A DNA stretch of 12,779 bases, taken from assembly GCA_046497275.1 (NCBI GenBank), contig JAWOFX010000178.1, positions 1 to 12,779 on the forward strand, read 5' to 3'. Positions 1 to 4,909 of the stretch are shown here, piece after piece. The translations under genes were made by a program, and so were the position numbers. Position 1 is the stretch's first letter; every line of letters starts with the position of its first letter. The DNA is from Promethearchaeia archaeon (GTDB lineage: Archaea; Asgardarchaeota; Lokiarchaeia; Sigyniarchaeales; SOKP01). The notes below the pieces were generated by a model. The model was not told the origin of the DNA. It saw only the letters and a list, made by a program, of their open reading frames with translations, and searched no databases.

Positions 1-414
1 CGAGATATTGGTCCTCCTATGTATCCTCCTTATATAAATTATAATGGAGTCTATGGGCAATTTGATCCCATTGAAGTTGATAAGAGAGAGGATTGCTTGG
101 CGTGTGGAGATATCGAGGGTGAGGAAAATGTTCAAATTGTTGTTCCTTTTGATGCAGATATTAATTATATATTCAATGCTATGAAAATCACTGGATATGA
201 ATTGGAACCAAATGAATGGTTAATAACCAATCCTCGAAGTAAAGAAATATATTGGGATCCTAATGCAAATAATCCTATTTTCAAAGATCCTGAAGTAAAA
301 TTAAGAGGTGAGTTAAAGGTAGAAAGCAATGAAATTTTAACTTTAACACCACTTGGAAAAGCAAAAGAAAAGTCTAATATTAAGAAATATAATGTAATCG
401 TGACCTATATGTGA
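1..414 (+). CDS. Ubiquitin-activating E1/ThiF-MoeB family enzyme, C-terminal part (5' truncated by window edge)
   Basis: Frame 1 is open from base 1 (RDIGPPMYPPY...), so the ATG at 19 is probably internal. 'YNGVYGQFDPIEVDKREDCLACG' matches the E1/ThiF C-terminal CxxCG zinc motif. It is followed by about 100 aa that could be a ubiquitin-fold (E2-binding) domain. An E2 gene lies 2.5 kb away. Confidence 0.7.
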   Translation, partial: RDIGPPMYPPYINYNGVYGQFDPIEVDKREDCLACGDIEGEENVQIVVPFDADINYIFNAMKITGYELEPNEWLITNPRSKEIYWDPNANNPIFKDPEVKLRGELKVESNEILTLTPLGKAKEKSNIKKYNVIVTYM

Positions 415-1399: not shown

Positions 1400-2824
1400 T
1401 TGTTAATTTTAATGGATAGAAATCTGTTTGAAGCTTGGAGAGAGGTAAATCATCATTATAATAAAATAAAAATATGCAGAAAATCATTAAAAAGTTCAAT
1501 TGTAAGACATAATTATGTATTTTTCAAAAAAGGTGATAAAGGCGTTCTTCGTTGTATTTATTGTGGAAATAAATTAGTAAATGATGAGTTTTCTAAAGGA
1601 TTTTTAAATCATAGAAATAAGTCTAAAGAAGATCAAAATAAGGGTTTTGGGGATATTACAATTTATAGAATTTATTGGTATAAAAATATTAATGGGGGTT
1701 TTTTGGAGTTTCCTGGATTAAATTATGTTGGTCAAACTAAAAATTCAGCATATAAAAGGATATTGGGTAATGGTGGTCATTTCAATAAAGCATTTAATGC
1801 TCCTTCGACTTCAATTGAATATTCCATTAAGAAATATGGAAAGAATTTGGATTTAGCAAAAAAAATATTTCGCTTTAAAATAATTCAGATTGTGAAATTT
1901 CAAGGCAGTTGGACTCTAATAGAAAAAATAAAGGATTCAAATAAACGGAAGAAAATGATTAAAAAATGGCAGAGAAAAACTCAAGAATTAGCAAATAAAA
2001 TAGAACAATTCTGGATAGGTTTCTATCATTCTCAATTTTATCGATTTGGAAGAAATATTCTTCCAGGAGGGAAGAAAACTCGTAGTTTTGCTTCTTTAAA
2101 TTATAAAACATTGGATAAAGTGTTAGAAGAAGCTTGTGTACTATCTAGAATTGCTGTTAGAAAAGATTATGTGTTTGAGAGATTAGATTTAAACGTTACT
2201 CAAAATAGAATTTTGGATAATAACATAAGAAGATGGTATGGAATTAGGAAAAAACCATTTGAGACAATTATAAGAAGAAAAAGGTTAAACAGGATTAAAG
2301 ATCTCTTTGAAAAAGGATATAAAATTAGTGATATTGCAAAAAATATCAATGCTAATAGAAGTGATATTAGAAAGTGGTTAACATCAAGCATTTATAATAA
2401 AAAATTTCCGAAAAAGAGTACAATGGAGATTAGGAAAATAGTTATTTCCACAAAAATTAAATATCTCATTGGCCTCGGTATTAAAAATCCGTCAGATCTT
2501 CTACAAAAATTACCCGGATTTAAGAATTCCGAAGCTATAACGCATTTTATAAGAAGAAATATTAGCTCTTGGTATGATTTAATTAATGAGTTTGCTCCTA
2601 AAAAAGATTATTGGAATATAGCGAAGAAATTAATTATAAAACGATATAAGAATAATTTAAAGTTTGGAAAAAAACTTTATACATCAGTAGAGTTTGCTAG
2701 AATCCTGGGTTCTAAAGCTAATAGTTCCTCTGCTGCTATTAAATACATAAAGAGAAAATTAAATACGGAGCTCTCTTGGTCAGAAATTATGGATTGTGTA
2801 ATTGATAATTTTACTAATAAGTGA
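1400..2824 (+). CDS. GIY-YIG family endonuclease (homing-endonuclease-like) with C-terminal HTH-like DNA-binding region
   Basis: TIYRI...YVGQT...KRI...H, followed by IEQFWI (putative catalytic Glu) and FGRNILPGG (the GxN..PGG motif of intron-type GIY-YIG enzymes). HTH-like GYKISDIAKNINANRSDIRKWL. Very Lys/Arg-rich. Start is either TTG 1400 or ATG 1412. Confidence 0.8.
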   Translation: MLILMDRNLFEAWREVNHHYNKIKICRKSLKSSIVRHNYVFFKKGDKGVLRCIYCGNKLVNDEFSKGFLNHRNKSKEDQNKGFGDITIYRIYWYKNINGGFLEFPGLNYVGQTKNSAYKRILGNGGHFNKAFNAPSTSIEYSIKKYGKNLDLAKKIFRFKIIQIVKFQGSWTLIEKIKDSNKRKKMIKKWQRKTQELANKIEQFWIGFYHSQFYRFGRNILPGGKKTRSFASLNYKTLDKVLEEACVLSRIAVRKDYVFERLDLNVTQNRILDNNIRRWYGIRKKPFETIIRRKRLNRIKDLFEKGYKISDIAKNINANRSDIRKWLTSSIYNKKFPKKSTMEIRKIVISTKIKYLIGLGIKNPSDLLQKLPGFKNSEAITHFIRRNISSWYDLINEFAPKKDYWNIAKKLIIKRYKNNLKFGKKLYTSVEFARILGSKANSSSAAIKYIKRKLNTELSWSEIMDCVIDNFTNK

Positions 2825-2868: not shown

Positions 2869-2990
2869 TTAATCCATTGCATATTTTTGCGTCCATTTTT
2901 CTGCCTTTTTCTGAAAACTCTTATGTGAGCGAAAATATTGCTCACCTGCTTCGTGATTCAGCGGATCTCCAGGATTGAAAAAGGGCGGCT
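2869..2990 (-). CDS. Ubiquitin-conjugating enzyme E2 (UBC fold), exon 2
   Basis: Encodes (E)PPFFNPGDPLNHEAGEQYFRSHKSFQKKAEKWTQKYAMD*. This resembles the UBE2D/Ubc4 C-terminus (NPDDPL...EWTQKYAM). Confidence 0.85.
2871..2907 (+). repeat. Direct repeat copy B: the functional E2 3' end (KAEKWTQKYAMD)
   Basis: Matches 1312-1347 at 35/37 and lies inside E2 exon 2. Confidence 0.9.
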
Positions 2991-3022
2991 TTATGCTCTC
3001 AAGCAATAAATTTGCAGGAGAT
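2991..3022 (-). other. Putative 32-nt bulge-helix-bulge (tRNA-type) intron in the E2 mRNA
   Basis: mRNA sense: GC-AUGU-AG^A-UCUC-cu-GCAA-auuua-UUGC-uu-GAGA-GCAU-AA^A-GC. The 4-bp central helix AUGU/GCAU is flanked by 3-nt bulges AGA and AAA, with intron helix UCUC/GAGA and exon helix GC/GC. Cutting after the second nt of each bulge removes exactly 32 nt, including a UAA stop, and joins the two E2 frames as ...MMHVEPPFFNP.... Confidence 0.85.
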
Positions 3023-3410
3023 CTACATGCATCATGCCCTTTAAAGCTTCTATTATGCTTATCAGAGTTTTCGAAGGAGTCCATCCACTTGCTCCTGTTG
3101 CAGGATCAACCTTTCCAACTTTATCTGGATTTATTAAGTCCAAACAAATATTTAATTTTCCCGGGGGGATCGAGGAATCAATATTTGGATGCCACATCAA
3201 GGTCACCGCATAGACATAGGGGGGAGCAAAAGGATAATTATCAGGAAATTTAATTTCAAACACGAATCGTCCATTCTCATAAGGTGTATCATCCTTTCCT
3301 ATAATAGTTAATCTGAGATGGTCAATACTCCTACCCCAAGGTTCTAATATGACATGTTCATCATCTTTATATGCTTCTATTGCTTCTGCATAGTCAGTCT
3401 CTTCTCTAAT
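3023..3410 (-). CDS. Ubiquitin-conjugating enzyme E2 (UBC fold), exon 1
   Basis: The stop-free frame runs from 3416. It encodes REETDYAEAIEAYKDDEHVILEPWGRSIDHLRLTIIGKDDTPYENGRFVFEIKFPDNYPFAPP...WHPNI...NICLDLI...GWTPSKTLISIIEALKGMMHV, containing the TPY, YPFxPP and HPN motifs and the catalytic Cys. There is no in-frame ATG/GTG/TTG before 3263; the start is placed tentatively at ATT 3410. The spliced CDS is 388+122=510 nt, or 169 aa. Confidence 0.85.
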
Positions 3411-3416
3411 CGTTTG

Positions 3417-3423
3417 TCACCTT
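3417..3423 (-). promoter_or_regulatory. Putative archaeal Shine-Dalgarno (AAGGTGA) for E2
   Basis: GGTGA matches the archaeal SD core (GGAGGUGA) and lies 6 nt upstream of ATT 3410. Confidence 0.45.
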
Positions 3424-3801
3424 AGCTTTATGTTTACAAATATTAAATTATTTTTAAAACTTAGATTTTGTAAGTTTATAAAATTATATATTGAATAGTT
3501 AAAAAATTTTGTATAAACAAGACCTAAATTTTATTTTTTAGTTGTTATATTCTTGGTAAAGTATAATATTTTATACATTAAAATTTCAATTATTTTTTAT
3601 TATAAATGTGATATTATCCAACTCAGTGGGAATAAAGACCCAAATTGTTTTATAGTTCCGAGAGTATGATATGAAAGATTCGTGCAAATTCAAGAGCACA
3701 TAATTTAATAGCTCTATTACTAACAATTATAAAATCGAAAAAATTAAATTAATTCCACAATTATAATTTTTATCATAATCCCCTCTTAACTCAGTTGGTA
3801 G

Positions 3802-3829
3802 AAAATATTCTTTTCGAATATTTATCAAA
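3802..3829 (+). other. tRNA intron 1 (28 nt, non-canonical position 22/23 in the D arm)
   Basis: Central helix TGGT(3796-99)/ATCA(3824-27), bulges AGA (3800-02) and AAA (3828-30), intron stem AAATATTC/GAATATTT. Confidence 0.88.
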
Positions 3830-3844
3830 AGTGCTCGGCTGTAG

Positions 3845-3892
3845 ATATAATCGCGTATAAAGGCATCTGCCGATGAATATACGTCAGCCGAA
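3845..3892 (+). other. tRNA intron 2 (48 nt, canonical position 37/38)
   Basis: Removal restores the anticodon loop CTGTAG|A and stem CTCGG/CCGAG. Bulges are AGA and AAA. The central helix CTGT/GCCG has one mismatch (relaxed BHB). Internal stem CGTATA/TATACG. Confidence 0.82.
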
Positions 3893-4128
3893 ACCGAGAT
3901 GTCGCCAGGTCGAGACTGGCAGAGGGGATCACCTAATTTTCCTTCTCAGCTTTTCAATATGTGAATTAGAAATTGAATTTGATTTATGAAATAAAATATT
4001 CATTATCCATAAAGAGAATAAGAATAATATTCCCAAAAAATTTTAATCAGAACAAGCATTATTTCCGCCTTTAATAAAAGTTCTTTTTTATATTGTTAGT
4101 ATTTAATAACATCAGAATTCTCACACCC

Positions 4129-4166: not shown

Positions 4167-4421
4167 ATGATGACAACTGATATGGATACTATAATTTTAA
4201 AGATTGGATCGAAGGGAGAAATCTTTCCTCCAAAAGAAATCCGAGAGAAATTAGGATTTGAACCTAATCAACCAATTTTGCTGCATGTTCATGAAGATCA
4301 ACTAATCGTAAGAAAAATTTACTCAATGGAAGAGATATTGAATGTTCCACCCAAAACGAAAATAAGTTATCATGCTTGGAAACAATTTAAAAAAGATTTA
4401 CTTGAGGAATATGAGTCATGA
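4167..4421 (+). CDS. vapB: AbrB/MazE/SpoVT-family antitoxin
   Basis: IGSKGEIFPPKEIREKLGFEPNQPI matches the AbrB-type swapped-hairpin motif. Its stop overlaps the toxin start (ATGA at 4418-4421). Confidence 0.85.
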   Translation: MMTTDMDTIILKIGSKGEIFPPKEIREKLGFEPNQPILLHVHEDQLIVRKIYSMEEILNVPPKTKISYHAWKQFKKDLLEEYES

Positions 4422-4909
4422 AGATACTCATTGATACTTCATACTTTTTACCTCTTATTAAAATTGGGATTAAAACAATTCCTAATAAGCTCTTAATTGA
4501 TATTCTCGCGAAATCCAACAATACCTATTTTTACTCTAATTTGACCCTTTTTGAGCTCACGGCGAAAGGGTTAAAATTATCATCAAAAGAGAATAAAATA
4601 ACACCCCAAGATGTAAGGATCGGAATTGACACCATTCGAAACGATGCACGACTAACAGAACTATCGTTTACAAATAATCCTTTTATAATCGAATTAGCAT
4701 CTGATTTAAAAAAAGTGCATAATGATACTATAGACTGCTTGATTTTCGCGACTGCAATTTGCACCTGTGATTGTATCATCACGATGGATGAATTTCTCTT
4801 CACTCAAATAAATACAAGGCCTCCATTACTTAAAACGGTGAGAGAACTTAATAGTAGCTTCCAATTTTGGTTTAATGACCTTTCAGGAGAGTTAAAGTCC
4901 CTCAAATAA
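4418..4909 (+). CDS. vapC: PIN-domain ribonuclease toxin
   Basis: ILIDTSYF at the N-terminus, TLFE, DTIDCLIFATA and IITMD give the PIN acidic tetrad. Translationally coupled to the AbrB-type gene. Confidence 0.85.
   Translation: MKILIDTSYFLPLIKIGIKTIPNKLLIDILAKSNNTYFYSNLTLFELTAKGLKLSSKENKITPQDVRIGIDTIRNDARLTELSFTNNPFIIELASDLKKVHNDTIDCLIFATAICTCDCIITMDEFLFTQINTRPPLLKTVRELNSSFQFWFNDLSGELKSLK

Follow-up and report, generated by a model that had tools for sequence, protein, structure and literature searches.

Splicing of a short bulge-helix-bulge intron in an E2 mRNA of a Lokiarchaeial archaeon, and the bulge consensus shared with the introns of a neighbouring tRNA-Tyr gene

The present analysis concerned a 12,779-nucleotide contig of a Promethearchaeia archaeon (JAWOFX010000178.1 of assembly GCA_046497275.1; hereafter the window, C79 in our contig numbering), in which three short introns bounded by bulge-helix-bulge (BHB) motifs were found between positions 2991 and 3892 of two divergently transcribed genes. 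One of them interrupts the mRNA of a ubiquitin-conjugating enzyme (E2), and the other two interrupt a tRNA-Tyr gene. The E2 insert is removed from RNA in environmental samples, and it is an additional BHB intron in an archaeal pre-mRNA. As the original prediction had described, all three introns share, under the standard BHB geometry, a GTAG^A context (the caret marks the cut or, in proteins, the exon junction), an AG^A bulge on the 5′ side and an AA^A bulge on the 3′ side. We consider it highly probable that they represent three ordinary, separately maintained BHB introns that fit a lineage-wide bulge consensus, and not a single mobile lineage. The source metagenome-assembled genome (G000) comprises 3.85 Mb with 30% GC and belongs to Lokiarchaeia/Promethearchaeota, and the homologues of its E2 found among database matches carry the labels Lokiarchaeota/Promethearchaeota.

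The E2 gene, which belongs to the Pfam family UQ_con, runs from 3410 to 2869 on the minus strand. Its exon 1 (3023..3410, minus strand) begins with an ATT codon where the homologues have Met and ends in ..CAT GTA G, and it can be aligned both with uninterrupted 169-aa Lokiarchaeial E2 proteins and with the UQ_con profile (E=1.7e-21), the latter only over profile positions 21-108 of 140. The profile match stops at position 108, and the unspliced frame ends at a TAA within an insert, a 32-nt intron (2991..3022, minus strand, ATCTCC...GCATAA; the borders 3021..2990 fit equally). Exon 1 ends with ..CATGTAG at 3023, and exon 2 (2869..2990, minus strand) starts with AGCC.. at 2990 and encodes ..EPPFFNPGDPLNHEAGEQYF..KYAMD followed by the stop codon. 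Once the insert is removed, the E2 protein is gapless, end to end, against the intron-less 169-aa homologues (junction ..KGMMHV^EPPFFNPGDPLN..), and its C-terminus matches them residue for residue across KGMMHV^EPPFFNPGD. The BHB geometry, with a 4-bp central helix and 3-nt bulges cut between their second and third bases (Yokobori 2009, PMC2738675), was recognised in this intron: its central helix pairs ATGT (3028..3025) with GCAT (2996..2993) at four of four positions, its bulges are AG^A (3024..3022) and AA^A (2992..2990), and its inner hairpin is formed by TCTC..GCAA and TTGC..GAGA. The motif scores 4/4/2 (central pairs of 4, inner helix, outer helix) and is visible in the centroid fold, and cleavage after the second base of each bulge gives both the joint seen in RNA contigs and the restored protein. 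A flanking helix of at least 2 bp is present in all three introns of the window (inner/outer 4/2 in E2, 8/2 in the tRNA D-arm and 1/5 in the tRNA anticodon loop).

The removal of the E2 insert was observed in three metatranscriptome runs, which carry three study codes but come from one habitat (a salt lake) and one year. The three RNA contig sets cover E2 at 0 mismatches over 490-617 nt, and in contigs of all three runs the junction 2989->3022 skips exactly 32 nt; as contigs and not reads, they establish that the spliced form exists, whereas its abundance is not readable from them. A DNA run (X2) yielded a perfect unspliced E2 contig (2912-3047) without the junction 2989->3022, together with the E2 allele of a relative, which is apparently intron-less.

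The conservation of the intron was followed in 80 related genomes besides G000, an E2 match being obtained in 72 of the 81. At this position, designated site A, a 32-nt intron was found in G000, in G004 (same genus), in G017 and in G012, and 30-nt versions were found in two metagenome contigs. The site-A intron is missing from G001, G005 and most others, and also from G002, which belongs to the same genus and has a 97% identical E2, lacking the intron precisely at the site of window positions 2991-3022 (locus L006, G002:C118). By this comparison, and in view of the apparently intron-less allele in run X2, an mRNA intron seems to have been lost or gained exactly, and recently, within one genus. 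In five of the six carriers the exon context and the bulges are identical, and the inner hairpin differs through compensatory changes. In the sixth carrier (L002) the codon AUG stands for GUA and the motif reads ACAT[GG^A]..GTGT[AA^A] (bulges in square brackets); here GTAG has disappeared, and the two strands of the central helix have changed together. In the alignment of all six, 92% of the cells are paired and 8 of 20 pairs are compensatory, with both sides changed; in slid control alignments only 29-42% were paired, and the covariation score was reached by 0 of 500 shuffles. Moreover, the E2 family contains at least four independent BHB intron sites, all with introns of 30-32 nt. The three besides site A lie 7 nt upstream of it (AATG[AT^A]..CGTT[TA^G] or ..CATT[AA^G]), within ..QPP^YAY.. 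(CTCC[AT^T]..GGGG[AA^A]) and within ..FPE^NYPF.. (CCAG[AA^A]..CTGG[AA^A]), the loci concerned being L036 (G024), L035 (G014), L037 (G016), L039 (G044) and L003.

A further observation on E2 refers to its translation start. The ATT at 3408-3410 (minus strand) stands where homologues have their initiator Met, and no ATG, GTG or TTG was found from the upstream stop to codon 50. Among the loci examined for start codons (L006, L007, L010-L013, L017, L025-L027, L034, L041, L043 and L046), ATT or ATC occupies the E2 start in many relatives, each 5-7 nt past a strong GGTGA Shine-Dalgarno-like motif, and in relatives with an ATG, GTG or TTG start this motif is mostly weaker. These sequences suggest a conserved AUU/AUC initiation of E2 in the lineage. 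RNA contigs from two runs terminate at 3411/3413, and one of them then runs into adapter sequence. Finally, a possible larger insert after ..EAL in one relative (P0015/L004) was not interpreted; the contig has coverage near 1 and ends inside the gene.

The tRNA-Tyr(GTA) gene (3780..3928, plus strand) is separated from E2 by a divergent, AT-rich intergenic region (3411..3779). It holds two introns, and its mature form has 73 nt and a C1-G72 pair. Neither ARAGORN nor Rfam found a tRNA in the raw window, and ARAGORN recognised tRNA-Tyr only once both introns had been removed; its cloverleaf score of 30 is the highest of the whole census described below. The D-arm intron (3802..3829, plus strand, 28 nt) lies between positions 22 and 23 and reads TGGT[AG^A]AAATATTC..GAATATTT ATCA[AA^A]GTG, with borders TGGTAG^AAAAT..TCAAA^AGTG, four of four central pairs (TGGT/ATCA) and a BHB score of 4/8/2, and its hairpin is included in the fold of the whole precursor, which has a z-score of -3.7. 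The canonical anticodon-loop intron at 37/38 (3845..3892, plus strand, 48 nt) reads CTGT[AG^A]TATA..GCCG[AA^A]CCGAG, with borders CTGTAG^ATATA..CCGAA^ACCG. It forms a relaxed BHB of 3/1/5, with three of four central pairs (CTGT/GCCG), and in the minimum-free-energy fold it pairs CGGCUG with CAGCCG instead of the BHB. The RNA contigs of tRNA-Tyr are of low depth and unspliced, and say nothing on tRNA splicing. Among relatives, the 37/38 intron was present in every complete tRNA-Tyr orthologue solved, with 48-59 nt, and the D-arm intron was present in G000, G004, G012 and G046, other relatives having a T-loop intron instead. The adjacency of E2 and tRNA-Tyr recurs in many relatives.

The borders of these introns were compared with those of the whole genome through a tRNA census that was blind to bulge bases: genes were anchored on the T-arm and acceptor stem, BHB candidates were listed and spliced, and the resulting cloverleaf was scored. 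This pipeline of our own was used since the intron option of ARAGORN mislabels many genes. It returned 40 tRNA genes, of which 29 are interrupted by 38 introns. To these were added eight mRNA introns, seven of them outside the window and each verified by the restoration of a family motif, for a total set of 46 BHB introns. The seven are those of rnhB (TGGG[AG^T]..CCCA[AA^A], 31 nt), of two csp genes (TCGC[AA^A]..GTGA[AT^G], 30 nt, on C20, and CCGC[AA^C]..GCGG[AA^A], 29 nt, on C121), of a TFS-like gene (AATG[AC^A]..CATT[AA^A], 30 nt), of EF-1alpha (ATGG[TA^T]..CCAT[AA^A], 32 nt), of a Rab-like GTPase (CGGG[CA^A]..CCCA[AG^A], 29 nt) and of an lsrF-like aldolase (CGGA[AA^A]..GCCG[AA^A], 30 nt). 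The introns of rnhB, csp, TFS and EF1a were located by direct reading of frame breaks, stricter automatic filters having missed them; in cdhA (PF03063) no break was found within the matched part. Two BHB scans that merged open reading frames (ORFs), with 1540 and 509 candidates, were unusable for counting mRNA introns, as decoy geometries with wrong bulge sizes numbered ~1500 and ~520. These scans demanded at least 4 (1540 set) or at least 5 (509 set) contiguous inner pairs, and rnhB, which has 2, fails them.

Regarding the tRNA introns of this census, T-loop introns were noted in eleven genes (C25, two genes on C32, C34, C122, C172 and others), with 30-47 nt, ten of them with 30-34 nt; seven are inserted after position 58 and four after position 59. 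Seven T-loop introns read GTTC[AA^A/T]...GAAY[A A/T^A]TCCC, a likeness that is confined to the part complementary to the exon. Two further genes, C180:5385-5487 (Thr-GGT) and C180:5672-5802 (Asn-GTT according to ARAGORN after trial splicing), have the odd T-loops ATCATAA and TTCATAT, and no recognisable BHB was found at the expected borders of their inserts.

The bulges of the 46 introns revealed a marked bias in composition. The 3′ bulge AAA occurs in 18 of them and is by far the commonest form, and the first base of this bulge is A in 42 (91%; binomial p = 2e-15 against 35% A in introns), while the 5′ bulge AGA occurs in eight and is tied for commonest. In background BHB-like motifs, AAA reaches 6-7% and AGA about 3%. 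Among the 38 tRNA introns, 22 have AA as their last two bases and 20 have A as their first, so that an intron with an A start, an AA end and AGA/AAA bulges is the consensus intron of this genome. The suggestion of the original prediction that the host endonuclease is biased was borne out as a pattern of composition, of which an enzymatic cause is a candidate explanation. This consensus would probably stem from an enzymatic or structural preference and not from common descent, and it may reflect either a preference of the enzyme or the mere stability of unpaired A's.

Concerning GTAG^A, the same set gave a different picture from the one proposed. This context was found in five of the 46 introns, namely those of E2, the two of tRNA-Tyr and the D-arm introns of tRNA-Ser-GCT and tRNA-Asn, that is, in two of the 43 other than the three of the window. 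Four of the five sites correspond to tRNA consensus, being either the D-arm G19-U20-A21-G22 or the anticodon GUA plus G37. None of the seven other mRNA introns of the source genome has GTAG^A, nor do the three other E2 sites of relatives, and the 5′ contexts of those mRNA introns and E2 sites are unrelated; these are the outcomes that the original prediction had itself named as contrary to its proposal. Since two of the three GTAG contexts are fixed by tRNA consensus, the one match to be put down to coincidence is that of E2. Recurrence of GTAG^A beyond the consensus of the host genes, which target-site-specific insertion would require, was not observed. When the proposed search signature (GTAG^A and AA^A in a BHB whose removal restores the frame) was applied genome-wide, it returned only the E2 intron itself.

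The sequences of the introns were also compared by local alignment. The best score of the E2 intron against the 38 tRNA introns was 15, and the mean maximum of shuffled sequences was 16.1. The three introns of the window scored 8-12 against each other, and the 38 tRNA introns, compared all against all, gave a best score of 18, where the shuffled maximum averages 20.5. An identity of at least 70-80% across host genes, which characterises a transposing family, was not found among the introns aligned. This lack of similarity beyond shuffles agrees with a census of Asgard archaea, in which cross-isotype families comprise 1.5% of 1,062 tRNA introns, versus 28.3% in Thermoproteales (Goswami et al. 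2026, 10.64898/2026.10.13.758758).

These results bear on the proposal that one mobile BHB lineage has spread among tRNA-Tyr and the E2 mRNA encoded beside it. Such an intron could, for instance, have been reverse-spliced into a GUAG^A site and then passed through reverse transcription and recombination, the shared border being its target-site footprint. GTAG·A at all three mature junctions, the conserved synteny of the adjoining genes and the documented transposition of introns between tRNA genes of Thermoproteales, as referred to in Goswami et al. 2026, are consistent with such a lineage, as are the presence of both the E2 site-A and the Tyr D-arm introns in G000, G004 and G012 and the 6-mer TGTAGA common to the E2 and anticodon-loop junctions, which lie 800 bp apart. 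However, the introns are no more similar in sequence than shuffled controls, tRNA consensus forces two of the three contexts, the context is absent from the other mRNA introns and E2 sites, no further case was returned by the signature, and the D-arm intron occurs in G046, where the E2 intron is missing. Moreover, Goswami et al. 2026 (10.64898/2026.10.13.758758) saw no general copying route for tRNA introns in Asgard genomes. Taken with these findings, mobility of a single lineage seems unlikely. A different proposal would be a filter by selection, in which random introns persist only if their bulges suit a sequence-specific EndA that requires A at position 1 of the 3′ bulge and a purine at position 2 of the 5′ bulge, with GTAG^A as a favoured context. 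The frequencies of A at the first 3′ position (42/46), of AAA (18/46) and of AGA (8/46), far over background, are in line with it, but the GT before the bulge is not conserved (the last base of the 5′ strand of the central helix being C in 15, G in 11, T in 7 and A in 5 of the 38 tRNA introns), a range of further bulges (AAT, GAA, TAT, ATG and others) is seen in many working introns, and unpaired A-rich bulges are expected from thermodynamics alone at 30% GC, so we regard this filter as rather improbable. A combined scenario, in which EndA has a real bulge preference (3′ A-A^A; 5′ A-R^W) and mini-introns were reverse-spliced into exon half-motifs, with E2 site A seeded from tRNA-Tyr and GUAG^A as the surviving footprint, is given little credence; if true, the seeding of site A would show an mRNA gaining an intron among the archaea most closely related to eukaryotes. 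As for the possibility that the E2 insert is no intron at all but a product of misassembly, a lesion of a pseudogene or a programmed-frameshift site, it could appeal to the unspliced frame ending at the insert's TAA and to truncated products on record, such as P0012. Nevertheless, an independent DNA run contains these 32 nt, which the RNA contigs of three runs lack at exactly the predicted borders, and the insert is kept in four genomes with compensatory changes. The exact 32-nt skip in RNA refuted this reading, whose probability we consider practically nil.

Some observations weigh against the interpretation of three ordinary introns that happen to share a consensus. The tRNA census is incomplete, comprising ~40 of an expected ~46 genes with the two C180 genes left out, and the bulge positions encoded by tRNA exons are non-independent observations. 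GTAGA occurs in only ~0.2% of the background BHB-like motifs from ORF merging (3/1540), and the E2 match, once the bulge consensus is allowed for, has a chance of a few per cent and was noticed after the fact; the E2 junction also shares the full 6-mer with that of the anticodon loop. The co-occurrence of the site-A and D-arm introns in three genomes may be explained by shared ancestry, linked gain remaining an alternative. In addition, the introns are short and their interiors are apparently too diverged to trace, so that an old common origin may leave no similarity.

Under the favoured interpretation of separately maintained introns, a two-subunit EndA of the host would cut both bulges of each precursor, and RtcB would rejoin the exons, the substrates being one intron of the E2 pre-mRNA and two of the pre-tRNA-Tyr. 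The genome harbors two genes of the EndA family (PF01974; C46 and C168), of ~200 aa each, and two RtcB genes (PF01139; C100 and C145). The GTAG^A of the tRNA borders is exon sequence set by tRNA identity (G19-U20-A21-G22^A23 in the D-arm; G34-U35-A36 plus G37^A38 in the anticodon loop), and the E2 exon happens to read CAU GUA GAG (His-Val-Glu), with the intron supplying the complementary GCAU. The BHB introns of this lineage follow a bulge consensus of [A R^A/U] on the 5′ side and [A A^A] on the 3′ side, of which AGA/AAA is the commonest combination, and an unspliced E2 mRNA would yield a product truncated at the intron's own TAA.

Other genes of the window were also noted. Positions 1-414 (plus strand) encode the C-terminus of a CxxC-containing protein without a Pfam match; given its location next to E2, this could be the last portion of an E1-like (ubiquitin-activating) enzyme. 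An ORF of 474 aa (1400-2824, plus strand) converges on E2, and its Pfam matches, to zf-BED and HTH, are all weak; it is present in one copy in the genome and missing beside E2 at the loci of all relatives, and may be a strain-specific, perhaps mobile, insertion. Its N-terminal ..IYRIYW..NYVGQT.. resembles GIY-YIG nucleases by eye, and Pfam gave no confirmation. Downstream of tRNA-Tyr, at 4167-4909 (plus strand), a gene for a MazE/AbrB-like antitoxin (84 aa) adjoins that of a PIN-domain protein (163 aa), and the two likely form a VapBC-type toxin-antitoxin pair.

The closest known system is the BHB intron of the cbf5 pre-mRNA of Crenarchaeota (Watanabe 2002; Yoshinari 2006; Yokobori 2009, PMC2738675). 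As in cbf5, a protein gene is split by a short intron with its borders after the second base of each bulge of a (relaxed) BHB, the host would have a hetero-oligomeric EndA, as judged here from gene count, and a patchy presence among relatives implies gain and loss. Unlike cbf5, the present case involves an Asgard (Lokiarchaeia) host, a eukaryote-like E2 gene and an intron of only 30-32 nt, with four intron sites across E2 orthologues and at least seven more mRNA introns in the same genome, and splicing was seen in metatranscriptome contigs and not in cDNA from culture. In the literature searched, no report of BHB introns in Asgard protein genes was found, the coding-sequence cases being essentially those of crenarchaeal cbf5. 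The tRNA introns agree with those described for Asgard archaea by Goswami et al. 2026, in which D-arm, anticodon-loop and T-loop introns of ~20-35 nt lie at BHB motifs, with many introns per genome and without sequence families; this preprint (10.64898/2026.10.13.758758) covers neither mRNA introns nor bulge composition. They differ from the tRNA introns of Thermoproteales, where introns from different tRNA types group into families at 80% identity or more, a pattern taken to reflect transposition (Sugahara 2008; Fujishima 2010, both as cited in Goswami et al. 2026). Asgard EndA has been assigned to the (alpha-beta)2 type with an L1 loop, which was linked to broad specificity and relaxed substrates (PMC5829648). 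The two ~200-aa genes fit a two-subunit enzyme, as in the class with the L1 (Crenarchaea-specific) loop (PMC5829648; PMC2724299), and relaxed motifs such as that of the tRNA-Tyr 37/38 intron need a broad-specificity EndA of this (alpha-beta)2 plus L1 type. No description of a bulge base preference in this class of EndA was found in the literature searched.

Since the claim of a target site for a mobile lineage fails, GTAG^A is unsuitable as a search key. The bulge consensus (3′ AAA, with A as first base in 91%) is a better prior for intron finders, and it provides a testable prediction on the specificity of EndA. Gene callers truncate genes of this kind, as seen in the 'E2' products of 131-146 aa in databases, and the annotation of Asgard proteomes is affected. 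The eukaryote-type E2 of an Asgard archaeon requires tRNA-type splicing of its mRNA, as backed by environmental RNA and by covariation across genera. Because four sites were found across E2 orthologues and at least eight mRNA introns in this genome, endonuclease-dependent mRNA splicing looks routine in this lineage.

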